Positions 978 to 62,114 of a stretch of DNA of 64,000 nucleotides are shown here, in pieces. The notes beneath the pieces are model-generated. The model saw only the letters and a program-made list of their open reading frames with translations. It made no database searches and was not told the origin of the DNA. The position numbers and the translations under genes are program-made. Within the stretch, counting starts at the first letter, position 1. Each line of letters starts with the position of its first letter. Origin of the DNA: a phage; the sequence record OZ335961.1. One strand, 5' to 3'.

Positions 978-1171
978 ACTAATTCCTTTAATCCGTAAAT
1001 AGGAGATAATTCATCGCCCATACGAAGGTCTTCATTTCCATCTACCCAGGAAACAATATAAGCCTCTTTTATTTGAATACCACTCCATTTAAATGGAGGT
1101 AGAACCTTAGAAATTAATCCAGGTATACCAACTCCCTTTAATTCAACAGTTTGACCTAAAAAGAATTTCAT
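974..1171 (-). CDS. hypothetical protein (65 aa)
   Basis: ORF track; 4-nt overlap with neighbours suggests coupling. Confidence 0.4.
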   Translation of the reverse strand: MKFFLGQTVELKGVGIPGLISKVLPPFKWSGIQIKEAYIVSWVDGNEDLRMGDELSPIYGLKELV

Positions 1172-1458
1172 TAGAACCTCATCTGAAAACCGTGCGATTT
1201 AACATTACCGCCGCCAATATCAGAAATGTTAATTTCACGCGCAATTGAAGGGTCAATGTCAATTTCACGATTGAGTTTAGTGATAGCTAAAGTATCGCGC
1301 CCATTTACAGTACGGAATTCTAAAGGACATACTACATTAACGTAGTTTTTAATCGATTCGCTAGTAGGTTGCAAATGAGCAGGAAGGTCTTTAGGCGCCT
1401 TAGAGAAAACTACTTCGCAGAAGTTTTTACGAGTATCAAAATAAGTAGTCATAAACAT
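1171..1458 (-). CDS. hypothetical protein (~95 aa)
   Basis: ORF track trimmed to internal ATG ~1458 preceded by GAGGAAAA; a UUCG-type hairpin lies just upstream. Confidence 0.5.
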   Translation of the reverse strand: MFMTTYFDTRKNFCEVVFSKAPKDLPAHLQPTSESIKNYVNVVCPLEFRTVNGRDTLAITKLNREIDIDPSIAREINISDIGGGNVKSHGFQMRF

Positions 1459-1498
1459 AGTATTTTCCTCAGTAAGGGGCCGAAGCCCCTTATTTATT

Positions 1499-1864
1499 TT
1501 AAATATCAAATTCGTTAAGAACTACATCAAAGATTGCTTCAAGATGCTCAGGTTTAGCTCTGTTACTCAGAATATGACGAATCCAAGTTTTAACCAGAAG
1601 TTTACGATTAACACCATTCCAGCAAGGATGAGTCCCTAAATCGCGTTGGCGAAAATCATCATCCAGAGCGATTTTAAAAGAAGAACCTTCTTTCGTGATT
1701 GAAACCGTGATGCCATTTTCAAATCGCATATAAACGTAGTTAGGAGTCATATACTGTTCAATTTCGCATACTGATCCATTTTGATGTTTCCAAAGGCAGA
1801 TAGTATCAATAGAACCTGCAATACCGTTAGAAACATATTTACGTTCAAAGTTGATGTAGTTCAT
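1499..1864 (-). CDS. hypothetical protein (121 aa)
   Basis: ORF track; early-promoter-like element upstream at ~1901-1930. Confidence 0.5.
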   Translation of the reverse strand: MNYINFERKYVSNGIAGSIDTICLWKHQNGSVCEIEQYMTPNYVYMRFENGITVSITKEGSSFKIALDDDFRQRDLGTHPCWNGVNRKLLVKTWIRHILSNRAKPEHLEAIFDVVLNEFDI

Positions 1865-1900
1865 TTTTATTCTCCGAGATGTTTAATTGCGGTACAGGTA

Positions 1901-1930
1901 TATAATATCATATCCTGTACCAAAGTAAAC
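1901..1930 (-). promoter_or_regulatory. T4-type early promoter (GTTTAC -35, ~18 bp spacer, TAnnAT -10)
   Basis: gtaaac on the plus strand with a -10-like hexamer 18 nt to its left; precedes ORF 1499..1864. Confidence 0.45.
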
Positions 1931-1932
1931 AA

Positions 1933-2265
1933 TTATTTTACTACTTTCCAATGTTGCATGTCAAGTTTACCAACTTTTTTCATCTTCTCAATTAAGCGTT
2001 CGGCACGTTGGCGAGCTGTAACATAATACCATTCACCTAATTCATTTTGTTCAATTTTTCCAACGATTACTGTATTCAATTCATAAATCCAACCAGTAAA
2101 GAAATTATGAACTTGAATTGTAAAGGTGAAATCTGTTCCCATACCTTCTGTTGTTTCTACTTCAATAACATCACCTTCAACTGCCATTAAAAACCACATA
2201 GTTTCATCATATTTACCATTGAAGCATTTAGTTTTAACTGTAGCGTTCAGATTAATCGTTTTCAT
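1933..2265 (-). CDS. hypothetical protein (110 aa)
   Basis: ORF track; early-promoter-like element upstream at ~2293-2322. Confidence 0.5.
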   Translation of the reverse strand: MKTINLNATVKTKCFNGKYDETMWFLMAVEGDVIEVETTEGMGTDFTFTIQVHNFFTGWIYELNTVIVGKIEQNELGEWYYVTARQRAERLIEKMKKVGKLDMQHWKVVK

Positions 2266-2292
2266 TTTATTCTCCTTTGTTTGTGTAAGATA

Positions 2293-2322
2293 ATACTATC
2301 ACAAAGGAACCATACTGTAAAC
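2293..2322 (-). promoter_or_regulatory. T4-type early promoter
   Basis: Same GTTTAC-N18-hexamer architecture; precedes ORF 1933..2265. Confidence 0.4.
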
Positions 2323-2340
2323 AACTTTGTGCAATCTTTG

Positions 2341-2371
2341 AAAAATAAAAAAGGACTCCCGAAGGAGTCCT
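2341..2371 (-). terminator. rho-independent terminator (UUCG-loop hairpin + U-run)
   Basis: ggactcc-cgaa-ggagtcc perfect 7-bp stem; on the minus strand followed by a U-rich run. Confidence 0.55.
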
Positions 2372-2375
2372 CAAC

Positions 2376-2552
2376 TTATGCTTTCTGCTTACCAAAACGA
2401 GAAGCATCATCTCGAAGAACCGCACGTGCTCGGCGCATGATCTTCTCAACAGTTTGATTGATACGAGAGTTCGACCCACGCTTGTAACCAGCGCGTTTAG
2501 AATCACCAACTTTCTTTTCAACTGCTTTCTTTGCTTTAGCTTGTTTTGCCAT
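2376..2552 (-). CDS. small lysine/arginine-rich basic protein (~58 aa)
   Basis: ORF track trimmed to MAKQAKAKKAVEKK...; followed by a hairpin terminator. Confidence 0.45.
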   Translation of the reverse strand: MAKQAKAKKAVEKKVGDSKRAGYKRGSNSRINQTVEKIMRRARAVLRDDASRFGKQKA

Positions 2553-2949
2553 TATAAATTCTCTTTTAAATGAAAATGCAGGACTTATTGGCATTGCCTG
2601 CGAAAGCCCTCAAGGGGTACTTAGGTTTTGAATATTTACCGACAGGATAACCATAAACCTCGTCAACATACCTTATAGCTCTTATCTGTTGCACACCGTT
2701 AGCTTAAAGGTTCCGGGTTCGATTTCTCGAGGATAAGATATATACTGATGGATATATAGGCCTTGAGGCGTACTCCCGATTGGCCATCACCTCGGGGTAG
2801 CATGCACTTGCCGCTATAAGAATAACATTCAAGAGGTACACCGTAAAACTGCCGGGGTCTTAAAACTATAATGATTCGCAAATCATTAGTCAGACAGTTC
2901 GACGGCTCCTCGATTTTAGCTCACACTAAGGCAGTGAATCTCCAATAAA

Positions 2950-3198
2950 TTACTTCAGTGTTACCACAAAGTGACGAACTGCTTTTCGTGCGGCAGAAGC
3001 CAGAGGCTTAGCATATTTAAGTTCATCTTTTTCCTGAAGCTCAGCAGCTAATGCAGTTTGAGCAGGATTCAGATGTTTGAAATAACGCAGGATTTCAAGA
3101 GCTTCGGCTTCAACATCAATAGATGCGCCATAGTTTTCGTGACCATTATTCCATGCGTTTCGTTGCAGTTCAAGAGCGTGTTGTAATTGTTTAATCAT
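2950..3198 (-). CDS. rIII: probable rIII lysis-inhibition accessory protein
   Basis: 82 aa, immediately downstream of gene 31; matches the size and position of T4 rIII as recalled. Confidence 0.5.
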   Translation of the reverse strand: MIKQLQHALELQRNAWNNGHENYGASIDVEAEALEILRYFKHLNPAQTALAAELQEKDELKYAKPLASAARKAVRHFVVTLK

Positions 3199-3337
3199 TT
3201 AAAAATTCTCGTTAGAGATTAAAACTCGGTAGTCACGTTCTTCTGAATTTCATCTTCTTTCGACAGATCTCTCAGTTGTAGACTACCACATAGAATTGTT
3301 CGGTTAACTTATTATTCCGACACCCAATTCATATTAT

Positions 3338-3345
3338 TATTTATA
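3338..3345 (-). promoter_or_regulatory. possible late promoter TATAAATA upstream of rIII
   Basis: Minus-strand TATAAATA just after the gene 31 stop; long leader to rIII makes the assignment uncertain. Confidence 0.3.
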
Positions 3346-3681
3346 TCACTTATAAAGACACGGAATAGCTTTATAGTGACAGGTAACGAATTTTTGCTTA
3401 ATTTCTTTTGGCTGCTTAAGACCCAGAGCTACAAAAGGATGAGGAACGTTTCGAATTTGACCAACTGGAAGAGAAGTCAAATCACCAACTTCGCAGAAAC
3501 CTTCAGGAACATCAGGACCAACAGAGTGAACTACACACAGTTCAGGAACTTCACCTTGGACGCGTTTACCGATAATAAGTCCTGATTCTGTAACTTCTTC
3601 ATCACCGGCTTGTGCAGGTTCAGAAACTAAAATAACATATTCACCGACAGCACGAATTGGTAGCTGTTGTACTTCAGACAT
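3346..3681 (-). CDS. 31: gp31 co-chaperonin (GroES analogue for capsid folding)
   Basis: 111 aa [22 protein letters not shown]... matches recalled T4 gp31; position between rIII and cd. Confidence 0.85.
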
Positions 3682-3698
3682 CGTTTTTCCTTTTTGTT

Positions 3699-3733
3699 AA
3701 CAGATGAATTAATAATAACAAATAATTCTTAAA
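3699..3733 (-). promoter_or_regulatory. putative MotA-dependent middle promoter for gene 31
   Basis: Minus strand TGCTTTA MotA-box followed ~12 nt later by TATTAT. Confidence 0.35.
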
Positions 3734-3737
3734 GCAT

Positions 3738-4046
3738 TTATTTACCAATAAATTGGAGCAAATGCTCAACTTTCATACCATTAACGGAAATCAATTTATC
3801 AATAGAAAAACCTCGCCATGCACCAAGCTCAACATCAAATACTGGAACCATATCAGTAGATTCTTTCCGAGTAGATTCAGTCAATTTACCGGTTTGCATG
3901 GTTGGCATAAAGTCAGCATCACGAGTACCTTTCATAGTACGAATAGTACCATCAGACTTTTCAAAAACTACGTTTGAAATACCCATGGACAATTTAGTTT
4001 TTAAAATTTCACGAATTGCTACTTTCTGTTCAATTGTCAGTTTCAT
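3738..4046 (-). CDS. hypothetical protein (102 aa)
   Basis: ORF track; between cd and 31. Confidence 0.5.
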   Translation of the reverse strand: MKLTIEQKVAIREILKTKLSMGISNVVFEKSDGTIRTMKGTRDADFMPTMQTGKLTESTRKESTDMVPVFDVELGAWRGFSIDKLISVNGMKVEHLLQFIGK

Positions 4047-4283
4047 TTATTTACCTATTACAGTTTTAATATGAGTTGTTCCACGTTCTTTAAGAGTGGA
4101 AAGCAACTTTTGGCATTTTTCTAAATCAGATTTCCAACTATACGGTCTATCAATACAAACCCATTCTGACTTATAATACTGCTTCCATTTAGAGAAAAAA
4201 TATTTCTTATACTCTACAGCAAATGAAATGTTCTCGTTAGAATAAGAACTAATTGCTGTGAGCTGTACCAAACGAAATTTCAT
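4047..4283 (-). CDS. hypothetical protein (78 aa)
   Basis: ORF track; abuts the cd stop. Confidence 0.45.
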   Translation of the reverse strand: MKFRLVQLTAISSYSNENISFAVEYKKYFFSKWKQYYKSEWVCIDRPYSWKSDLEKCQKLLSTLKERGTTHIKTVIGK

Positions 4284-4864
4284 TATTCACCACAGAATTC
4301 GTTGATATTTTCCCAGTTTAACTTATTTAAGTTTTTCTTAGGAACATTAAACACTTCAATACCTGCATTTCGCAGAATATCATCCCAGCCAGGTTTATTT
4401 TTATCATATGTTTCGCAATAAACCAGCTTTTTAATTCCAGATTGAGCTATCGCTTTTGCACAATCTGGGCAAGGAGAAAGTGTTACATACATAGTAGCAC
4501 CTTCAATTGAAGAACCATTTCGCGCAGCAAACAAAATCGCATTTAGTTCAGCATGAATTTCATTTTTAGACGACCATTCAGAATGAGCGCTACGGTGTTC
4601 TTTCGCCAAGACAAAACGATCAGTTGAACCAAACGATACACATTCAGGCTTATGACCTTGAATGATAGTATGTTTAGGTTTATTCAGTAACCAACCTTGC
4701 TCAGCAGCATAATCACAGCAGTTCACGCCCCCGGCAGGTGAACCATTATATCCGGTAGAAATAATACGTCCATTCTTTTCAATTACTGCTCCTACCTTCC
4801 AGGAGCAACATTTTGATTCTTGTGATACTAAATACGCAATTTGAAGTACTGTACTCGCTTTCAT
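4283..4864 (-). CDS. cd: dCMP deaminase
   Basis: 193 aa; HAELNAI ... PCPDCAK zinc-binding cytidine/dCMP deaminase motifs; size and position as T4 cd. Confidence 0.85.
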   Translation of the reverse strand: MKASTVLQIAYLVSQESKCCSWKVGAVIEKNGRIISTGYNGSPAGGVNCCDYAAEQGWLLNKPKHTIIQGHKPECVSFGSTDRFVLAKEHRSAHSEWSSKNEIHAELNAILFAARNGSSIEGATMYVTLSPCPDCAKAIAQSGIKKLVYCETYDKNKPGWDDILRNAGIEVFNVPKKNLNKLNWENINEFCGE

Positions 4865-10955: not shown

Positions 10956-12125
10956 TTAAAAATATTTTTTAAAACTCATCATAACTTTATCATCAACATC
11001 ATTATCAATCTGTGCTACAAGGTAAGATGACAGTTCTACTTCCTGTGGCGCGGATTGAACATTATCAGAATTAAGGTATTCACGAATCCAAGGATACGGA
11101 TGTTTAACCGGAGCATCGGTAATTGGGCATGGAAGACCACACTGTTTCATACGAGATACAGTTAAGTAATCAATAAAGCTCCACATGCTATTTGTATTTA
11201 ATCCAGGAACATCGCCATCTTTAAATAAATGAACTGCCCAGTCTTTTTCTTGACGGTTAACTTCCATGAAAATATCAACTGCTTCTTGTTCACACTCTTG
11301 GGCGATTTTAACCCATTCATCACCATCAGTGCCAAGTTGAAGTTGACGAATAATATATTGGGTGCCTTTAAGGTGAAGCTGCTCATCACGTGCAATGAAC
11401 TTCATAATCTTGGCATTACCTTCCATGATTTCCATGTTCTTATGGAAGTTAAAGGTACATGCGAAAGATACATAAAAACGAATAGCTTCCAGTGCATTGA
11501 TTACATGAAGGCAAAGATAAAGAGATTTCATTAGTGCTTGTTTAGTACATTCAACAACTTTGCCTAACTCTTCTTTGCGAAATCCTTCTGATAAAATTCC
11601 TTCATAATCTTCAACCGCATTCTGATATTCACGAGTCTTAACTAGAACGTCATCATAATAACGACCAATAGATTCAGCACGTTTCATGATAGCTTTATCT
11701 AATACAATCTCATCAAATACCTTTGACGGATCAGTATAAAGATTTCGCATGATATGAGTATATGAACGGCTGTGAATAGTTTCACTAAAAGTCCATGTAG
11801 CAACCCATGTATCAAGACTTGGATCTGAAATTAACGACATAAGTACAGCAGACGGTGCACGACCCTGAATGCTATCTAGAAGTGATTGATACTTCAGGTT
11901 ATTAGTAAAAATATCTTGCTGATATTGAGGAAGCTTGTTAAATTGCGCAGCATCCATCATCAAGTTTACTTCTTCAGGACGCCAGAAAAATGATAATTGC
12001 TTTTCGGTTAAATCTTCAAAAACTTTATGGCGTTGAATATCATAACGCGCAATACCAAGACCTGAACCGAAGAACATAGGTTCTTTTAAAACATCAACTG
12101 GATTTGTATTAAAAACTGTAGACAT
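10956..12125 (-). CDS. nrdB: ribonucleotide reductase small (beta) subunit, uninterrupted
   Basis: ~389 aa from MSTVFNTNPVDV...; diiron-tyrosyl radical R2 family; continuous ORF, no intron. Confidence 0.9.
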   Translation of the reverse strand: MSTVFNTNPVDVLKEPMFFGSGLGIARYDIQRHKVFEDLTEKQLSFFWRPEEVNLMMDAAQFNKLPQYQQDIFTNNLKYQSLLDSIQGRAPSAVLMSLISDPSLDTWVATWTFSETIHSRSYTHIMRNLYTDPSKVFDEIVLDKAIMKRAESIGRYYDDVLVKTREYQNAVEDYEGILSEGFRKEELGKVVECTKQALMKSLYLCLHVINALEAIRFYVSFACTFNFHKNMEIMEGNAKIMKFIARDEQLHLKGTQYIIRQLQLGTDGDEWVKIAQECEQEAVDIFMEVNRQEKDWAVHLFKDGDVPGLNTNSMWSFIDYLTVSRMKQCGLPCPITDAPVKHPYPWIREYLNSDNVQSAPQEVELSSYLVAQIDNDVDDKVMMSFKKYF

Positions 12126-12856
12126 TAATTTTTCCTCTTTAAAATTCTGCCGTGTTTCCAACCTGGCGGTATAATATCATCTTTACCTATAAGCGTGCAT
12201 TCACTTCCATTATTAATCCATTTCTTACCGCGGATTCCTTTATAATCTCTTGGTTTTATTTTGTCAAACTTTGCATCAAGTTGATATGACCATCTAAATC
12301 CATAAGCATATTGAAATTTACCCTCGGCGCAATATTTGATATTTGACCCGTTTCCATTAACTGACCGGGACGCTGCTGCAATAGAGTGAAAAGTTTCTAT
12401 GAAATCCCCATCTAATGAGAATTTATGTATTTCTACAGATGGGCACGCATATCTATTCACGTTAGATACATGTTGTTTAGTTTCGTTTTTATGATGCTTA
12501 CCTAGCATTCCTTTAGGATGAGGATTATTTTTCCAATATTTCTTAAAGAACTCAGAATTAGCTTTAGCAAATAATTTTCTGTGTAAGCTGTACAATCTAT
12601 TATTAATTCTATTGCCAGCTTTATCTGTTGCCATTAGCGTTAATGCAGAGGCAAGTCCAAAATGGCCTTCATTTATCTTACACAGTAATAGATGTGCTAT
12701 AAAATGTTCTCTAGCTGTTAATTCAACTAAATTTTCTTTATCATCAGAACCTCCCATGCATCTAGGGATTATATGATGTGTCTCTTTATATTCTGATAAA
12801 GATTCCCGAGCCTGAGCTCGGGAAATTAGGTCGTTATAGATTTTTTGATAATTCAT
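12125..12856 (-). CDS. mobE: HNH homing endonuclease (Mob-type)
   Basis: 243 aa; HHIIPRCMGGSDDKENLVELTAREHFIAH HNH core; sits between nrdA and nrdB as T4 mobE does. Confidence 0.7.
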   Translation of the reverse strand: MNYQKIYNDLISRAQARESLSEYKETHHIIPRCMGGSDDKENLVELTAREHFIAHLLLCKINEGHFGLASALTLMATDKAGNRINNRLYSLHRKLFAKANSEFFKKYWKNNPHPKGMLGKHHKNETKQHVSNVNRYACPSVEIHKFSLDGDFIETFHSIAAASRSVNGNGSNIKYCAEGKFQYAYGFRWSYQLDAKFDKIKPRDYKGIRGKKWINNGSECTLIGKDDIIPPGWKHGRILKRKN

Positions 12857-15120
12857 TATAATTTACACGCTGCGCAATCATCGGCTTTTGGAGCTTCTAT
12901 TTCATAATCATCAGTACCAGAACCATCGCGAGTATTATGATAATAGAAATTTTTAATGCCATAATACCATCCGTATAGCATGTCATCAATCATTATTGAC
13001 ATTGGAACCTTTCCTTTTGGAAAAATCTGCGGGTCATAATATGTATTCGCTGAAGCTGATTGACATACCCATTTCAGCATAATAGCTACTTGCGTAAGAT
13101 AAGGTTTATTACCTTTCTTAGCTAATTTCCACGTATAATCATATAGGTCTATGTTATGCTCAATATTGGGCACGACTTGATTAAAGGAACCCTCTTTTGA
13201 TTCTTTAACAGAGACTGGTCCACGTGGAGGCTCGATACCGTTTGTACTGTTAGAAACTTGGGAAGATGACTCACATGGCATAAGTGCTGATAATGTGCTA
13301 TTACGGATGCCAAAGAGCTTAAGGTCTTCCCGCAGCGACGACCAGTCACAAACGTATTTTGGAGCTGCGATTTGGTCAATCTTTTTATTGTACCAGTCGA
13401 TAGGTAATTCGCCTCGAGACCAACGAGTGTCTGAATAATATTCGCAAGGTCCTTTTTCTTTGGCGAGTTTAATGGATGCTTTAATGAGTCCATACTGCAA
13501 TCTCTCAAATAGTTCATGTGTTAAATCGTTAGCATCTTCATAAGAAGCAAAATTACTTGCCAGCCAAGCTGCATAGTTAGTAACACCTACGCCAAGGTTT
13601 CGACGCTTTTTAGCTTTTTCTGCTTCAGGAACTGGATATCCTTGGTAATCCAAAAGATTATCAAGAGCACGAACTTGGACTTCTGCCAATTCATTAATTT
13701 TATCTTGGTCTTGCCAATCGAAGTTATCTAACACAAATGCAGATAACGTGCACAATCCAATTTCAGCATCAGGACTATTCACATCATTTGTTGGAATAGC
13801 AATTTCACAGCACAAGTTACTCTGACGAATAGGTGCCTTTTCACGAATAAATGGCGTATAGTTATTCGTATTATCAATGAACTGCACATAAATCCTTGCT
13901 GTTCCTGAGCGTTCAGTCATAAGTAATTCAAACAGTTCACGGGCTTTAATACGCTTTTTACGAATATTAGGGTCTTTTTCTGCGGCTTCGTATAATTCAC
14001 GGAAACGGTCTTGGTCTTTAAAATAAGAATAATAAAGTTCGCCACCCATTTCATGCGGACTAAACAAAGTAATGTAATCGTTCTTTCCGAATCGTTCCAT
14101 CATTAGGTCATTCAGTTGAACGCCATAATCCATATGACGGATACGGTTTTCTTCTACACCTTTGTTGTTTTTCAAAACGAGAAGATTTTCAACTTCCAAA
14201 TGCCAAATAGGATAATAAGCAGTAGCAGCGCCGCCACGAATTCCACCCTGTGAGCATGATTTAACAGCAGTCTGAAAATGTTTCCAAAAAGGAATAACAC
14301 CAGTATGACGTACTTCACCTGTGCCAATCTTAGAACCTTCGGCACGAATCATACCAACGTTAATACCAATTCCAGCACGTTTGGAGATATATTCAACAAT
14401 TGAAGCGGAAGCCTTATTGATAGACTTTAATGAATCACCTGCTTCAATAACAACACATGAACTAAACTGTCGAGTTGGAGTACGACAACCAGCCATAATA
14501 GGAGTTGGCAATGAAATCTGTCGAGTAGATACTGCTTCATAAAAACGAATAACGTGTTTTAGTCTATCAACAGGTTCATCTTGATGCAATGCCATTCCAA
14601 TAGTCATAAATGCAAACTGTGGAGTTTCATAAATTTGACCAGTGGTTTTATCTTTAACTAGATATTTTTCTTTTAATTGCATCGCCCCGGAATAAGTAAA
14701 TTCCATATCCCGCTCGTGCTTAATTTTTGATTCTAAAAATGTAATTTCTTCTGCTGAATATTTTGACAACAGTTCAGGGTCGTATTTACCTTCATTTACA
14801 CAGTAAGAAATATGGTCAATAAATGAACGTGGTTCATATTGTCCATAAACATGCTTACGAAGAGCGAACATTAAACAGCGTGCAGCTACGTATTGATAAT
14901 CAGGCTCTTCAACTGAAATAGAATTCGCAGCAGCCTTAATTACAATGGTTTGAATGTCATCAGTGGTCATTCCATCACGGAGATATGATTTAATATTTTC
15001 ATATAATTCATAAGGATCTACAGATGTTCCTTCAGCTGCCCAAGATAAAACTTTAATAATTTTTTGCGGGTCAAAGCTCTGAGAAACACCACTACTTTTG
15101 ATAACATTAATTAATTGCAT
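12856..15120 (-). CDS. nrdA: ribonucleotide reductase large (alpha) subunit
   Basis: 754 aa; ATP-cone N-terminus and C-terminal Cys-containing tail (DDCAACKL); class Ia R1. Confidence 0.95.
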   Translation of the reverse strand: MQLINVIKSSGVSQSFDPQKIIKVLSWAAEGTSVDPYELYENIKSYLRDGMTTDDIQTIVIKAAANSISVEEPDYQYVAARCLMFALRKHVYGQYEPRSFIDHISYCVNEGKYDPELLSKYSAEEITFLESKIKHERDMEFTYSGAMQLKEKYLVKDKTTGQIYETPQFAFMTIGMALHQDEPVDRLKHVIRFYEAVSTRQISLPTPIMAGCRTPTRQFSSCVVIEAGDSLKSINKASASIVEYISKRAGIGINVGMIRAEGSKIGTGEVRHTGVIPFWKHFQTAVKSCSQGGIRGGAATAYYPIWHLEVENLLVLKNNKGVEENRIRHMDYGVQLNDLMMERFGKNDYITLFSPHEMGGELYYSYFKDQDRFRELYEAAEKDPNIRKKRIKARELFELLMTERSGTARIYVQFIDNTNNYTPFIREKAPIRQSNLCCEIAIPTNDVNSPDAEIGLCTLSAFVLDNFDWQDQDKINELAEVQVRALDNLLDYQGYPVPEAEKAKKRRNLGVGVTNYAAWLASNFASYEDANDLTHELFERLQYGLIKASIKLAKEKGPCEYYSDTRWSRGELPIDWYNKKIDQIAAPKYVCDWSSLREDLKLFGIRNSTLSALMPCESSSQVSNSTNGIEPPRGPVSVKESKEGSFNQVVPNIEHNIDLYDYTWKLAKKGNKPYLTQVAIMLKWVCQSASANTYYDPQIFPKGKVPMSIMIDDMLYGWYYGIKNFYYHNTRDGSGTDDYEIEAPKADDCAACKL

Positions 15121-55883: not shown

Positions 55884-55913
55884 ATTATACCATACTCATT
55901 GTGGAAAGTAAAC
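55884..55913 (-). promoter_or_regulatory. T4-type early promoter (consensus)
   Basis: GTTTAC -35, TATAAT -10; immediately downstream of the soc terminator. Confidence 0.5.
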
Positions 55914-55921
55914 CGGTAAAA

Positions 55922-55947
55922 TGAAAAAAGGACTCCCGAAGGAGTCC
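55922..55947 (-). terminator. rho-independent terminator after soc
   Basis: ggactcc-cgaa-ggagtcc hairpin identical to the one at 2354-2371, followed by a U-run. Confidence 0.6.
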
Positions 55948-55953
55948 CTGAAT

Positions 55954-56199
55954 TTATTCACCAGTTACTTTCCACAAATCTTCGTTTGCAGCAATCCACG
56001 CAGCACGTTGATTTTCTTCATATACAGTAGTATATGCTGCTTTTTCTGAAGGGAATATCTGATAATGAGCGCCAGAAATTTTGTGAACGTCAGAATAAAG
56101 AGGGAAAGCTACAGAAATTTCTTTTCCTTCAATTTTCTTATTTCCATCTAATTTCTGCTCAAATGTTTTAATATTAACATAACCGCGAGTACTAGCCAT
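55954..56199 (-). CDS. soc: small outer capsid protein Soc
   Basis: ~80 aa MASTRGYVNIKTFEQKLDGNKK... matches recalled Soc; late promoter upstream and strong terminator downstream. Confidence 0.8.
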   Translation of the reverse strand: MASTRGYVNIKTFEQKLDGNKKIEGKEISVAFPLYSDVHKISGAHYQIFPSEKAAYTTVYEENQRAAWIAANEDLWKVTGE

Positions 56200-56219
56200 G
56201 TAATTCTCCTTTTATTTAA

Positions 56220-56227
56220 ATTACATG
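56220..56227 (-). promoter_or_regulatory. T4 late promoter TATAAATA for soc
   Basis: Minus-strand TATAAATA ~20 nt upstream of the soc ATG. Confidence 0.55.
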
Positions 56228-56271
56228 ACTATTTATAATAAATTCTCACAGCTTTTAAGCTGTCGTTTATA

Positions 56272-56790
56272 TTAATAGCCTCGGTCTTGACGAGCGAAGT
56301 TTTCGGCATTTTTTAGATAATAAAGTTTAAAGATTTCTTCAGCCGTAAGACCGAGACCTTGGAACATGTTCAGAACAAAATGAAGAATATCAATCATTTC
56401 GAATTTAATTTCCAACTGATCTTGTGGAGATAAGTCAGTAATCAGAGTTTCACGGCGTTCACCATGTTGAGATTTCCACGGCTTCCATACAGCAGATGCA
56501 TCTTTTTCGCCATTGCTCATACCACCAAGAGAAGTCAGAAGTTCGCGGAATTCATCATCAATATAATCTTTTTGATTACGCAGCCAATCAACAACTTCAC
56601 CTGCAGTAGCCAAATCATCAGGATGACGGTTATATTCAGGTTTATCTTTAGCTAAACGAACCTGCAGAGATTTCTGCATATCAAGCATAACTTGCAGCGG
56701 GTCTTTTTCATCACCGAGAATATCCCAGTATTCATTTTGAGCTTTATCAGCGCCTTCAATCAGTTGACTACATTCGTTGAAATGTGGCAT
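56272..56790 (-). CDS. 56: dCTP pyrophosphatase gp56 (MazG-like)
   Basis: 172 aa; size and position as T4 gp56. Confidence 0.8.
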   Translation of the reverse strand: MPHFNECSQLIEGADKAQNEYWDILGDEKDPLQVMLDMQKSLQVRLAKDKPEYNRHPDDLATAGEVVDWLRNQKDYIDDEFRELLTSLGGMSNGEKDASAVWKPWKSQHGERRETLITDLSPQDQLEIKFEMIDILHFVLNMFQGLGLTAEEIFKLYYLKNAENFARQDRGY

Positions 56791-56791
56791 G

Positions 56792-57442
56792 TTATTTTTC
56801 CTTTCTTATGAAGTTTTCTATCATATGTCTATAGCAGATATTAGGATAACCTGCCTTGACAGCTATTTTATTAAATTTTGTGCGCTTAGGTCTATTATTA
56901 TAAACCCATAATTCATAAAGCGCATCATAACTATTCCATATTTCTCCTCGCCTAGGATTTGGTAAACCATATCGAGGCGAATTTTTACCGCTAAATCTTC
57001 CTTTTCGGGCTTTACTCATATTAGTCTTGGCTTCATCGGATATAATTTTACCTTTATGAGCTAGACGCATTTTGGCTTTAGTTTCTTCTGGAGTCTTTTT
57101 GCCTTTAATCCATGACGGCTTACCATATCTAGGATTATTTTCACCCGAGAAAAGAACAGAGTTTTGGATTTTAAGGGTTTCTATTAATCTACTTGTTAAT
57201 TTAACACCTTTATTATATCGCATTAAATTTACAGCATAATGCAATCCTCTCACATCTGGATATATTTTAGTTAATAATCTATGAGCTATAAAATGCTCAC
57301 GCGCAGTTAACTCAACAAGATTGTTTTTGCCATCTGCTCCTCCCATACATCTAGGAATTATATGATGGCGTTCTTTATATCCGCCAAGATGCCGGCATTT
57401 AGCTTTTGTAATTAAAGCCGAGTAAATTTTTTGGTAATTCAC
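56792..57442 (-). CDS. HNH homing endonuclease (Mob-type), paralogue of 12125..12856
   Basis: 216 aa; N-terminus nearly identical to the nrdA/nrdB endonuclease (MNYQKIY..HHIIPRCMGG..NLVELTAREHFIAH); C-terminal NUMOD-like repeats (NPRYGKP, NSPRYGLP). Confidence 0.75.
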   Translation of the reverse strand: MNYQKIYSALITKAKCRHLGGYKERHHIIPRCMGGADGKNNLVELTAREHFIAHRLLTKIYPDVRGLHYAVNLMRYNKGVKLTSRLIETLKIQNSVLFSGENNPRYGKPSWIKGKKTPEETKAKMRLAHKGKIISDEAKTNMSKARKGRFSGKNSPRYGLPNPRRGEIWNSYDALYELWVYNNRPKRTKFNKIAVKAGYPNICYRHMIENFIRKEK

Positions 57443-57512
57443 ATATATCCTTTCAATTCATGGATTAGTAGATTAATTATACAATAAATATATAAAGCAA
57501 TAAGGAGGATAT

Positions 57513-57713
57513 ATGGTACAAAAATTAATGGCACTTGTAGATGCCATAAAAGGTAATAAAAGACGTATAGCTTTTACTATTTCTGCTATGATAGGAATTT
57601 TACTTTGGAATTTTGTTTTATCGCCAGTTGCTATTGCTCATGGTGTTAGTATTCCAGTAATTACTCTCGATACATTCGTAGATTTAGCATTTGCTTTAGT
57701 TGGGTTAATTTAA
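57513..57713 (+). CDS. small hydrophobic protein (66 aa), opposite strand to neighbours
   Basis: ORF track; canonical SD AAGGAGG 7 nt before ATG; two predicted hydrophobic segments; 3' end converges on the primase stop. Confidence 0.45.
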   Translation: MVQKLMALVDAIKGNKRRIAFTISAMIGILLWNFVLSPVAIAHGVSIPVITLDTFVDLAFALVGLI

Positions 57714-58738
57714 ATCTTAGCATATTTAGATAGCCGCATTTTGGCCATCAACCCTTGGGCAATATTATTTTTCATATATTCCATAATTTGTTCAGGGGTT
57801 GCACCTTCCTTTCTAATCATATCATTAACATCTTTTGATTTCCAGGGAGATTTGTCCCAAAACATAACCCTTTCTCCTGCATCAACCAATTTAGTCATTC
57901 GTTTAATAGTATCAGGGTGACGAGGTTCATTATCTAAAACCCATACACGTCTATCTTTAAATGGAACAATTTCTAGGTCTAATTGACCACCCGTAATAGC
58001 TATACCATTTTCAATAAAAAGTGAATCTATAGGTCCTTCTAGAACATATACATCACCATCTTTGACTCGTTCAACTCCATAGATTTTTGTTGCCTCAGGA
58101 TAAGCTTTGATGGTGATATATTTTTGAGGAGCATCTTTCTTTAATGCACGTCCTTGAAAAGACTCAGCTTTTCCGTTAGCATTATAAATTGGAATAACAA
58201 GACGAGGCTCAGATATTTCCTTTTTATATGTTCCTGGCGCTATACTATTAACTAATTTAGGCCATTCGGTTGTAAACCAAAGATATTTCCATTTATCCTT
58301 TGGAATACAACGAGCTTTTACATATTTTATAATTGGATGGTCTTCCGCCAGTTTATCTAATCTAATGCATGACGGAAGAGATTTAATTATTTTCTTCTCA
58401 GGCTGCTTAGGAAGTTCTTTAGGTTTTTCTACTGGACGACTTTTACCTTTTTCTTTTCTTATTTCAAAGATATACTCACGATATAAATCAGGTTCAAACT
58501 CCTTTAAATATATTCCGATTGGTGCATGATAGTTACAGTTATAACAATGAATATTTCCTTCATTATTATCACCATAATACCATCCACGGGCTTTATTTTG
58601 GTCGGTTTTTGAATCTCCACAAACAGGGCATCTAAACCGTAATTTAAAAGTTGAACTATTATTTACTTGTGCGAATTTAGGTAAATGAGCCAATGCACGG
58701 TATGCAAACTCATTATCAATCCAAGGTATTGATGACAT
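57710..58738 (-). CDS. 61: DNA primase gp61
   Basis: 342 aa as T4 gp61; N-terminal CPVCGD...CYNCNYH zinc ribbon; TOPRIM core. Confidence 0.9.
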   Translation of the reverse strand: MSSIPWIDNEFAYRALAHLPKFAQVNNSSTFKLRFRCPVCGDSKTDQNKARGWYYGDNNEGNIHCYNCNYHAPIGIYLKEFEPDLYREYIFEIRKEKGKSRPVEKPKELPKQPEKKIIKSLPSCIRLDKLAEDHPIIKYVKARCIPKDKWKYLWFTTEWPKLVNSIAPGTYKKEISEPRLVIPIYNANGKAESFQGRALKKDAPQKYITIKAYPEATKIYGVERVKDGDVYVLEGPIDSLFIENGIAITGGQLDLEIVPFKDRRVWVLDNEPRHPDTIKRMTKLVDAGERVMFWDKSPWKSKDVNDMIRKEGATPEQIMEYMKNNIAQGLMAKMRLSKYAKI

Positions 58739-58743
58739 TTTTA

Positions 58744-58905
58744 CTCTTCTTTTTCTTTAGATTCCTCTTTTTTCTTTTTAGGAATCTGTTCAGGACCTTT
58801 ATTTACTACAGCGCCTGACGTTGTTCCAGTGGAGATATTTTCAGGATTACCACCTGAGTCTCCAGCTACCATATCTTCTTTAATAAATTCTTTATATGTT
58901 TTCAT
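58744..58905 (-). CDS. small low-complexity protein (~54 aa)
   Basis: Hand-translated MKTYKEFIKEDMVAGDSGGNPENISTGT...KKKKEESKEKEE; start abuts upstream stop; below track cutoff. Confidence 0.3.
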
Positions 58906-59854: not shown

Positions 59855-59884
59855 ATAGTATCTCAATTTCCAACAAAAGTAAAC
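59855..59884 (-). promoter_or_regulatory. T4-type early promoter upstream of sp
   Basis: GTTTAC -35, TACTAT -10. Confidence 0.5.
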
Positions 59885-60138
59885 TATTTTATTTCCTCAA
59901 GTTCGTTAATCAATAAAAGTTCTCTGACGCTAAAAACAAAGAAAAATGTGTTCCCATCAACCAGAGCATGACCGCTAATAGAACACCCTCTGCGGAATTT
60001 AGAAACTTCACAATCTAGAACTGTAAAGGGTTTTAATCCTATGACTTTAGCTATGCGTCTATTCAGTTCACAACCACTTGCGAATTTTTCCAAATCTTCT
60101 TCTGATTTAAACTGATATTCTCTATTAACTAGCATCAT
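59884..60138 (-). CDS. hypothetical protein (84 aa)
   Basis: ORF track; early promoter upstream at ~60170-60199. Confidence 0.45.
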   Translation of the reverse strand: MMLVNREYQFKSEEDLEKFASGCELNRRIAKVIGLKPFTVLDCEVSKFRRGCSISGHALVDGNTFFFVFSVRELLLINELEEIK

Positions 60139-60657: not shown

Positions 60658-60687
60658 ACTATACCATAGTCTTGTCGGCTTGTAAAC
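60658..60687 (-). promoter_or_regulatory. T4-type early promoter upstream of dmd
   Basis: GTTTAC -35, TATAGT -10; overlaps the gene 41 stop region. Confidence 0.45.
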
Positions 60688-62114
60688 TAAAATTTTAATT
60701 CATTTGCCAAAGCATCTAACTGAGCTCGAGCGGATTCGTTTCTTTGATAGCGGTTCTGTTCAGCCTGAATCTGCTGTGAACCTGCTACTTCGTTCACTTC
60801 GGTTGGAGTAGAATCTTGCTCAATTTCTACCCATTTTTGATTTCCTTTTTGAACACCCATCAAAAACTTATTCCATTTATTCTTATCACCATATCGTGAT
60901 TTGATTTGCTTAATGAGTTGTTGTTCAGCGGCTGCTAACTCCTCGGTTTCAATGACCGCAAGCATAAAATCGGCTGTTGCTGGAAGACCGGCAGATTCTG
61001 CAATATCGCTCATGTTAACATCAGAAGAATCCCAAGCTTGCTTACCAACCTGTGCTGCAGTCCAAAGAACAGTTTCGGTTTCAACAGCCAGAGCACGCAA
61101 TTCTTCTGCGATGGCTTTAACAGTTGTGTAACTATTTTCTGAATAAACTCTGATGCGACAAGATTTACAAATACCCAGATAGTCAACAATAATGATTGTT
61201 GGAACAAAATTCTTCTTGAGCTTTAATTCGTTTAAAAGCGATCGAAATGTATTAGCGTCTGCTCCACCAGTAGGATATTGCTTAACGATTAAACGACCGA
61301 GAGTAGATTTCTCACGCCATTTTTCCATTTTTCCTTTATACTCAGCGTAAGAAATATGCCCATCATCAATGTCATCAAGAGAAACATCAAGCATGTTAGC
61401 GTCAATACGCTTAGCACAAACTTCTTCTGCCATTTCCATGGAAATGTAAAGAACATTATGTCCGAGCTGCAAATAATCTGCTGCCAATGAACACAGACCT
61501 AATGACTTACCGACGTTAACACCAGCCATTAAAACGTTCAGTGTTCCAGTTTCAGCTCCACCTTTAGTAATTTTATTTAGAATTTTGAGTCTAAATGGAA
61601 CCTTACGAGCTTTATTCATATAAGATAGCCAACGTGCTTCGTAGTCATCCATCCAATCATGACCAACGTAACTATCAAATGAAATTGATAATGCTTGGCG
61701 CATGATGTCAGGAATAGCACCTACATCTGGCATTTTCTTATTTCGTTTTTCCGGAGGAAGCTCAGCATTAGTTTGAATTTCAATTATTTTAGACGTAGCA
61801 TTAAACATCGCCCTTTGCTGAACATATTTTTCTGTTTCTTTTACTAACCAGCTATGGTCTTCTGGAGAATCGGCTAGTTTCGAAATAAGTGTTTTTACAC
61901 CAGAATATTCTGTTTCAGTAAATGAACTATTTTCTAATGCAACATTTAACGCATTAATAGATGGAACGCTATGGTATTCATTAACATGAGATTTAATTAA
62001 TTTGAATGTATTTTTAGCTGGACCACTTTCAAAATATTCTGAATCCATATATGGCCAAACTTTTGAAAAATAAGCTTGATCAAATATGAGATGAGAAAGA
62101 ATAATTTCTACCAC
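60687..62114 (-). CDS. 41: replicative DNA helicase gp41 (DnaB family)
   Basis: 475 aa as T4 gp41; Walker A GVNVGKS. Confidence 0.9.
   Translation of the reverse strand: MVEIILSHLIFDQAYFSKVWPYMDSEYFESGPAKNTFKLIKSHVNEYHSVPSINALNVALENSSFTETEYSGVKTLISKLADSPEDHSWLVKETEKYVQQRAMFNATSKIIEIQTNAELPPEKRNKKMPDVGAIPDIMRQALSISFDSYVGHDWMDDYEARWLSYMNKARKVPFRLKILNKITKGGAETGTLNVLMAGVNVGKSLGLCSLAADYLQLGHNVLYISMEMAEEVCAKRIDANMLDVSLDDIDDGHISYAEYKGKMEKWREKSTLGRLIVKQYPTGGADANTFRSLLNELKLKKNFVPTIIIVDYLGICKSCRIRVYSENSYTTVKAIAEELRALAVETETVLWTAAQVGKQAWDSSDVNMSDIAESAGLPATADFMLAVIETEELAAAEQQLIKQIKSRYGDKNKWNKFLMGVQKGNQKWVEIEQDSTPTEVNEVAGSQQIQAEQNRYQRNESARAQLDALANELKF

Follow-up and report, generated by a model that had tools for sequence, protein, structure and literature searches.

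Free-standing endonuclease genes of phage T4, together with the intron-encoded enzyme I-HmuI, are the closest described counterparts of the gene analyzed here. I-HmuI, an HNH nicking endonuclease of solved structure from an intron of Bacillus phage SPO1, has an N-terminal HNH domain, an extended linker/repeat region, and a C-terminal helical DNA-binding domain. T4 SegF, which belongs to the GIY-YIG family, is encoded between soc and gene 56, targets gene 56, and shows intronless homing and localised marker exclusion. T4 MobE is encoded at the nrdA/nrdB locus, with its site ~120 nt from its own gene, and T4 MobD (nrdC.11/mobD.1) is a 259-aa protein encoded at another locus. Seven T4 free-standing endonuclease genes, among them mobA, mobC, mobD, and mobE, are promoterless, and MobA nicks DNA (PMC2988022), as does MobE.

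We analyzed a stretch of 64,000 nucleotides of phage DNA (OZ335961.1), referred to as the window. The window comes from a T4-like phage (Tequatrovirus), with Escherichia phage Killian as its best DNA match over positions 55900–58900 (97.2%). The features needed for the comparison are as follows.

60687–62114, minus strand: gene 41, helicase
between 41 and 61, minus strand, in this order: dmd, 61.4, an 84-aa ORF (59884–60138), sp, 61.2, and 61.1
57710–58738, minus strand: gene 61 (DNA primase), upstream neighbour, outside the element
56792–57442, minus strand: predicted Mob-type HNH homing endonuclease ORF, 216 aa, GTG start
56272–56790, minus strand: gene 56 (dCTPase/dUTPase), downstream neighbour and presumed target gene
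55954–56199, minus strand: soc
12125–12856, minus strand: MobE-like HNH endonuclease, paralog of the 216-aa ORF, 243 aa, HNH plus NUMOD1

A preliminary description of this DNA had placed a second Mob-type HNH endonuclease gene between gene 56 and the primase gene; the ORF list contains exactly this 216-aa minus-strand ORF with its GTG start, and its product matched PHROG 655 ('homing endonuclease') with an E value of 1e-59 over residues 1–210. We divided the protein into the following parts.

residues ~20–60: predicted HNH beta-beta-alpha core
residues ~100–162: two NUMOD3-like repeats with two NxPRYG motifs
residues ~164–215: three-helix C-terminal module, MobD-like

The HNH motif of the protein, HHIIP…NLVELTAREH, includes the conserved His/Asn/His catalytic motif of the HNH nuclease superfamily, and H26, H27, N41, H50, and H54 were invariant in an alignment of 44 homologous sequences. 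The Pfam HNH model (PF01844) scored the ORF below threshold (14.7 bits against a gathering cut-off of 21.4; E 0.035), and the MobE-like ORF also fell just below this cut-off (20.3 bits); such scores are typical of Mob-type domains and do not outweigh the motif and homology evidence. The NUMOD-like repeats that had been proposed were borne out by Pfam NUMOD3 (PF07460), which passed its cut-off (26.7 versus 20.4 bits, residues 107–126), and inspection of the translation by eye revealed a second, degenerate repeat at residues 131–148 as well as the two NxPRYG motifs. The ORF product has at least 2,990 relatives among database proteins (E ≤ 1e-5), most of them matching over the N-terminal ~150 residues only. 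An AF2 model had a mean pLDDT of 78, with the beta-beta-alpha core at 91–96 and the C-terminal three-helix module at moderate confidence. A PDB sequence search gave no significant match, searches of solved structures gave nothing significant beyond weak helix-turn-helix or winged-helix and HNH matches, and no NCBIfam family matched the protein. With this domain and homology evidence, we consider it very probable that the 216-aa ORF is a Mob-type mobile endonuclease cassette.

The endonuclease between nrdA and nrdB to which the preliminary description had compared this ORF is real, lying between NrdA (12856–15120) and NrdB (10956–12161) with HNH and NUMOD1 matches. Near-identity of the two N-terminal cores, as had been claimed, holds for the catalytic core (29 of 33 residues identical at positions 22–54), with 44 identities in the first 60 residues, but does not extend to the overall alignment, which is 51% identical over 130 aa; as had also been proposed, the C-terminal halves differ and are in fact unrelated. 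Compared to T6 and RB59 MobE, the N-terminal HNH region of the 216-aa protein is 44–45% identical over 165–174 aa. The 216-aa gene further resembles T4 mobE in being a free-standing, promoterless cassette just upstream of its probable target gene and in being polymorphic among T-even relatives. It differs from MobE, however, in its locus (56/61 rather than nrdA/nrdB), in its C-terminus (NUMOD3 repeats and MobD-like helices, compared to NUMOD1 in the MobE-like ORF of the window), and in having its own ribosome-binding site (RBS) and GTG start with no overlap with the upstream gene.

T4 MobD is collinear with the 216-aa protein over its full length (34% identity, E 9e-34), and the two share the C-terminal module with the motif W..YD.LY.LW...NRPKR..F....GYP, although the middle region of MobD is longer and different. 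The gene is already annotated in many GenBank records, under the names 'homing endonuclease', 'HNH endonuclease', 'mobE', or 'mobile endonuclease D' (one record, H32, reads 'putative mobile endonuclease D'), and its biology is standard for T-even free-standing homing endonucleases; the 'mobE' label (VR5, YP11) overstates the kinship, and the gene is not MobE. Our literature searches found no paper analyzing this particular gene or insertion. SegF, in contrast, belongs to an unrelated catalytic family and lies on the opposite side of gene 56, but likewise flanks gene 56 as a free-standing gene, and its intronless homing and localised marker exclusion are the behaviour expected of the 216-aa ORF; SegF itself was not found in the 64-kb window. 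I-HmuI would be expected to share the modular layout of the 216-aa protein, as judged from the model, but its gene is intron-encoded, unlike the gene described here, and the searches we ran detected no sequence or fold match between the two proteins.

To set the boundaries of the insertion, we aligned the window with Killian, ELT1, EC121, fPS-2, and T4. The cassette is intergenic and free-standing, contains no intron or intein, and has the same orientation as genes 61, 56, and soc. Its boundaries and the nearby expression signals are listed here.

57447–56799, minus strand: insertion cassette relative to the empty site, 649 bp, placement ambiguous by 7 bp (flanking repeat)
57448–57454, minus strand: upstream GAAAGGA copy, the original gene-56 Shine-Dalgarno, with the HNH GTG 5 nt downstream
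56799–56805, minus strand: downstream GAAAGGA copy, in the last HNH codons (…RKEK and stop), serving as Shine-Dalgarno for gene 56
57476–57500, minus strand: T4 middle-promoter motif, with MotA box TTGCTTTA at 57500–57493, an 11-nt spacer, and −10 TATAAT at 57481–57476
57528–57547, minus strand: terminator-like hairpin and T-run, between the end of gene 61 and the middle promoter; an annotated terminator in fPS-2 at the homologous position

The 7-bp direct repeat GAAAGGA thus stands on both sides of the 649-bp cassette. The empty site reads …AATTGAAAGGA joined to AAAATA(AC)ATG…, placing the cassette between the gene-56 Shine-Dalgarno and the gene-56 ATG, and the empty site rebuilt from the window is the actual sequence in two locus records (L011 and L027). 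A single nucleotide separates the HNH stop codon from the gene-56 ATG. The cassette therefore captures the resident RBS for the HNH GTG and brings a second copy for gene 56, so that both genes keep translation signals. We read the MotA-type middle promoter by eye, consistent with a 'predicted middle promoter' annotated at the homologous position in the fPS-2 record; a generic sigma-70 scan, in which counts were at shuffle level, did not detect it. Because this promoter is also present in phages that lack the HNH gene, it is gene 56's own, and the cassette is promoterless, using the middle promoter and RBS of gene 56. RNA folding of the translation-initiation region gave a z-score of −1.4 with no convincing RBS-sequestering hairpin, and we make no claim for hairpin-based translational control. 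In the T4 RefSeq record, oriA is annotated 22 nt into gene 56, and the gene-56 transcript is given as the primer RNA; the equivalent of this point (T4 16763) is window position 56768, and the cassette puts 649 bp more between it and the middle promoter.

The preliminary description had also given the T4 interval as carrying 69/dam, had reported no methyltransferase-sized ORF here, and had suggested that a mobile endonuclease may have remodelled the locus. The absence was confirmed: apart from the HNH gene, the 56–61 interval of the window contains just one 66-aa plus-strand ORF, and tblastn with T4 Dam found no match within the 64-kb window. This account of T4 was correct for dam, which occurs alone between 56 and 61, but not for the former '69' region, now segF, which lies between 56 and soc. 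The proposed remodelling was not supported. In our alignment, HNH and dam are two separate indels ~60 bp apart, with the ~0.9-kb dam cassette of T4 and ELT1 located ~60 bp further upstream of the HNH insertion point and missing from the window, Killian, fPS-2, and EC121. All four combinations exist: dam without HNH in T4 and T2, in both of which dam adjoins gene 56 directly; both genes in ELT1 and IME537, where the same HNH gene occupies the same position right beside an intact dam; HNH without dam in the window, Killian, and fPS-2; and neither gene in EC121 and many others, which is the commonest state (~299 of 514 records). The ELT1 and IME537 arrangement is the one that the preliminary description had set as grounds for refutation. 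T4-type dam was present in just 184 records, compared to ~514 closely matching locus records (≥90% identity), and absence of dam is therefore the majority state regardless of HNH. Thus, dam absence is an independent, older polymorphism and not a consequence of the HNH insertion.

We also asked whether dam might reside elsewhere in genomes carrying the HNH gene. A query spanning the dam–HNH junction matched 238 records at 239 places, showing that, at megablast sensitivity, records with the HNH gene have no second, separate T4-type dam segment; this option was rejected, although the genome from which the window comes could encode a divergent Dam outside these 64 kb. Separately, GATC is strongly under-represented in the whole window (positions 1–64000), with 80 sites observed compared to ~210 expected from mono- or trinucleotide composition.

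A link between the two genes would arise if homing from a dam-less donor co-converted the dam region, so that the endonuclease spread the dam-less state and remodelled the locus in this way. The dam 3' end is just ~60 bp from the insertion point, and dam is present in 3 of 34 Tequatrovirus-type records with HNH (the dam–HNH junction occurs in ELT1 and in IME537, which is present twice) compared to 181 of 480 without it, with an odds ratio of 0.16 and a nominal p of 3e-4 that, because the records are phylogenetically non-independent, is no true probability. This negative association is a lead only and may simply be linkage. The prevalence of records with neither gene argues against co-conversion as the source of dam loss, and the promoter regions of dam-positive and dam-negative haplotypes show many differences, suggesting old alleles rather than fresh deletions. 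Moreover, ELT1 and IME537 carry the cassette in a dam-positive haplotype with the junction ≤15 nt from the GTG, showing that upstream co-conversion can be very short. We therefore regard spread of the dam-less state by the endonuclease as very improbable. Similarly doubtful is a broader proposal, in which the site would be the gene-56 start/oriA and homing from dam-less donors would drive Dam loss or shuffling and would shift the oriA primer promoter by 649 bp in several T4-like genera.

The distribution of the cassette gives a clearer picture of how it spread. A query with the locus matched 668 records, 514 of them at ≥90% identity, and the cassette was found at ≥90% DNA identity in 56 of these ~668 phage records, always at this site. 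T2, T4, T6, and the RB phages were all missing from the 59 records matched by an HNH-gene query, in agreement with the proposed insertion relative to T4 and T2. The same insertion site is used in Killian, ELT1, fPS-2, Mexia, VR5, SSE1, AV111, and PYPS2T, and it is occupied in Tequatrovirus of both dam-negative and dam-positive background, in Mosigvirus (SSE1, AV111), in Klebsiella T4-like phages (Mexia and 21 others, ~90.5% DNA identity), and, by a 79%-identical ortholog, in Dhakavirus VR5. Compared to the window, the Mosigvirus cassette is ~99% identical, whereas divergence is 25–40% across the end of gene 61, the intergenic region, and gene 56; identity begins at ATGAATTGAAAGGA and is lost past nt 33 of gene 56. 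In the comparison with Mexia, cassette nt 1–313 and 537–654 are 1–3% diverged, the centre is ~25% diverged, with nearly all changes in third codon positions, and the flanking genes 61 and 56 are ~25–45% diverged. Between backgrounds, the common flank is just ~15 nt upstream and at most 33 nt downstream of the cassette. These alignments show that the cassette, as judged from its sequence and that of its flanks, has moved as a unit among dam-positive and dam-negative Tequatrovirus, Mosigvirus, and Klebsiella T4-like backgrounds.

The diverged segment in the Mexia comparison corresponds to window positions 56907–57129 (ORF nt 314–536), the central NUMOD3 region, which is ~25% diverged from the Mexia record (L006) with almost all changes synonymous. 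The HNH gene is mosaic when compared with the Klebsiella-phage copy, a pattern suggesting that older alleles of the endonuclease gene have recombined within it.

Is the gene itself responsible for this movement? It could instead be an inactive or domesticated passenger, spread by general recombination between co-infecting phages or mobilised in trans by a SegF-type enzyme that cuts gene 56. T4 offers a precedent for such trans-mobilisation of a defunct endonuclease, that of I-TevIII by MobE (PMC2790892); gene 56 is a known SegF target, Mexia, fPS-2, and PYPS2T have a second endonuclease gene beyond gene 56, and the length of the A-run at the HNH 3' end varies (A4, A5, A6), altering the C-terminal tail in a way that could be early decay. 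However, all HNH motif residues are intact, and between the window and Mexia copies dN/dS is 0.10 (41 synonymous versus 16 nonsynonymous codon differences). In addition, the alignments of all 56 copies at ≥90% identity span the full 651 nt, the tract common to different genera ends within 33 nt of the gene-56 start although a SegF-type break deeper in gene 56 should lead to co-conversion of a longer part of this gene, and the window and most phages with the HNH gene lack segF. A passenger role is thus unlikely. The low dN/dS of ~0.1, taken with the divergence pattern of cassette and flanks, indicates a protein that is probably functional and under purifying selection, with recent lateral spread of its gene.

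The sequence around the insertion point offers a candidate for the homing site. In every high-identity cassette-bearing copy whose junction we read, spanning Tequatrovirus, Mosigvirus, and Klebsiella-phage backgrounds, 'AC' precedes the gene-56 ATG and codons 2–4 are CCA CAT TTC.

56790–56776, minus strand: cassette-linked variant, the first 15 nt of gene 56 (ATG CCA CAT TTC AAC), together with 'AC' at 56792–56791

Most Tequatroviruses without the cassette instead begin gene 56 with ATG GCN YAC TTT. The EC121-type empty site reads …GAAAGGAAAAATAATGGCATACTTT…, and the PD112/L011-type empty site reads …ATAACATGCCACATTTC…. Past these 15 nt, gene 56 of the window is equally close to that of EC121, which lacks the cassette, and that of Killian, which carries it. 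The CCA CAT TTC-type flank is the natural sequence of Klebsiella-type loci without the cassette (L026, L027), and the flank type of cassette-bearing phages also occurs in a few dam-positive Tequatroviruses without the cassette (L011 and ~6 records such as PD112 and CE1). Because it occurs in cassette-free loci, the variant is either a co-converted allele of the donor lineage or the scar of a precise loss across the 7-bp repeat, and it may simply be the donor's natural allele. The VR5-type ortholog lacks the CCA CAT TTC flank, and these substitutions are therefore unnecessary for self-protection.

The stretch across the insertion point, comprising the RBS and the MAHFNECSQLI codons, is conserved in all invaded lineages, which is what the target of a homing endonuclease would be expected to look like. 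We infer both a cleavage activity and a target site for the 216-aa protein, and we lean toward the view that the protein is currently active with a target within roughly 20–35 nt of the insertion point, a position read from flank haplotypes in which later recombination could have trimmed longer conversion tracts; the ~120-nt distance between MobE's site and its gene also speaks for caution here.

The best explanation for these results, and one we hold to be likely, is that the ORF represents a T4 Mob-type (HNH) homing endonuclease gene, which is free-standing and spreads by intronless homing. According to this model, gene 56's MotA-dependent middle promoter would drive joint transcription of the HNH gene, gene 56, and soc, and the HNH protein would be translated weakly from the GTG start. 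During mixed infection, the protein would bind the conserved RBS/first-codon stretch of gene 56 in a co-infecting genome that lacks the cassette, presumably using its NUMOD3 repeats and C-terminal helical domain, and would nick one strand at the gene-56 start, as its family members T4 MobE and MobA do. Recombinational repair from the cassette-bearing genome would then copy the cassette into the recipient. The host allele would be protected because the insertion splits the site, possibly aided by the linked changes in gene-56 codons 2–4.

The nuclease could alternatively serve mainly the phage, either as a weapon that partially excludes competing T4-like genomes at gene 56 or by acting at oriA. 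The insertion point is ~25 bp from the T4 oriA coordinate, homing endonucleases are known to cause localised marker exclusion, and a 2026 paper reports promotion by SegB of the amplification of anti-defence loci (PMC13096335). Selfish homing, however, fully explains both the presence/absence pattern and the lateral transfer, and exclusion arises as a side effect of homing, not through a mechanism of its own, making a primarily phage-serving role highly improbable.

The cassette adds one more well-delimited free-standing endonuclease gene to those behind T-even genome mosaicism, leaving current understanding unchanged. The locus is well suited as a model of intronless homing by a putative HNH nickase, in that its boundaries are unusually clean, the RBS is taken over and replaced, nearly identical copies occur in genera with strongly diverged flanks, and some phages have an endonuclease gene on each side of gene 56. 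For annotation, the lesson is that the gene should not be called mobE and that the absence of dam should not be attributed to the insertion.

Phages with endonuclease genes on both sides of gene 56 include fPS-2, PYPS2T, and Mexia. In fPS-2 (L004, 1826–2662) and PYPS2T, a different, 278-aa HNH gene lies between soc and 56, the position of segF in T4, and the corresponding place in Mexia (L006, 3661–4350) is occupied by a segF-like gene; the window has no gene between soc and 56 (55954–56790). The 278-aa protein of fPS-2 and the window protein have a C-terminal module of ~49 aa in common (47% identity, E 1e-10).

The HNH ORF has at its 3' end an A-run whose length differs among phages: A5 for the window, A4 for SSE1 and AV111, and A6 for PYPS2T. 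With the A4 run of Shigella phage SSE1 (L050) and Escherichia phage AV111 (L052), isolates from China and Denmark (locus positions 401–1450), the stop is lost, HNH and gene 56 share one reading frame, and a 1173-nt (390-aa) CDS named 'homing endonuclease' is annotated in both records. With the A6 run of Yersinia phage PYPS2T (L051, 401–1084), the ORF is 227 aa and overlaps gene 56 by 31 nt. One further record (L040, IMGVR_UViG_2974741249_000001) appeared to have an HNH gene with a split gene 56, but consists of scrambled, duplicated fragments and was not used as evidence; at positions 1000–4700, fragments of genes 61 and 56 surround an HNH copy that is truncated at its N-terminus and joined to a remnant of gene 61. 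This record is probably a chimeric assembly of mixed phages with and without HNH, or else a set of recombination scars.

The 66-aa plus-strand ORF between the cassette and gene 61 (57513–57713, plus strand) encodes a conserved hydrophobic protein that matches PHROG 2024 (E 1e-29) and is preceded by a strong AAGGAGG Shine-Dalgarno. The ORF and gene 61 are convergent, with a 4-nt overlap at the gene-61 stop. Identity is 89–95% in Tequatroviruses and 44–51% in other genera, and the ORF is annotated as hypothetical in Killian, EC121, fPS-2, VR5, and Mexia; it is unannotated in the T4 RefSeq record although T4 encodes a version at 89% identity.
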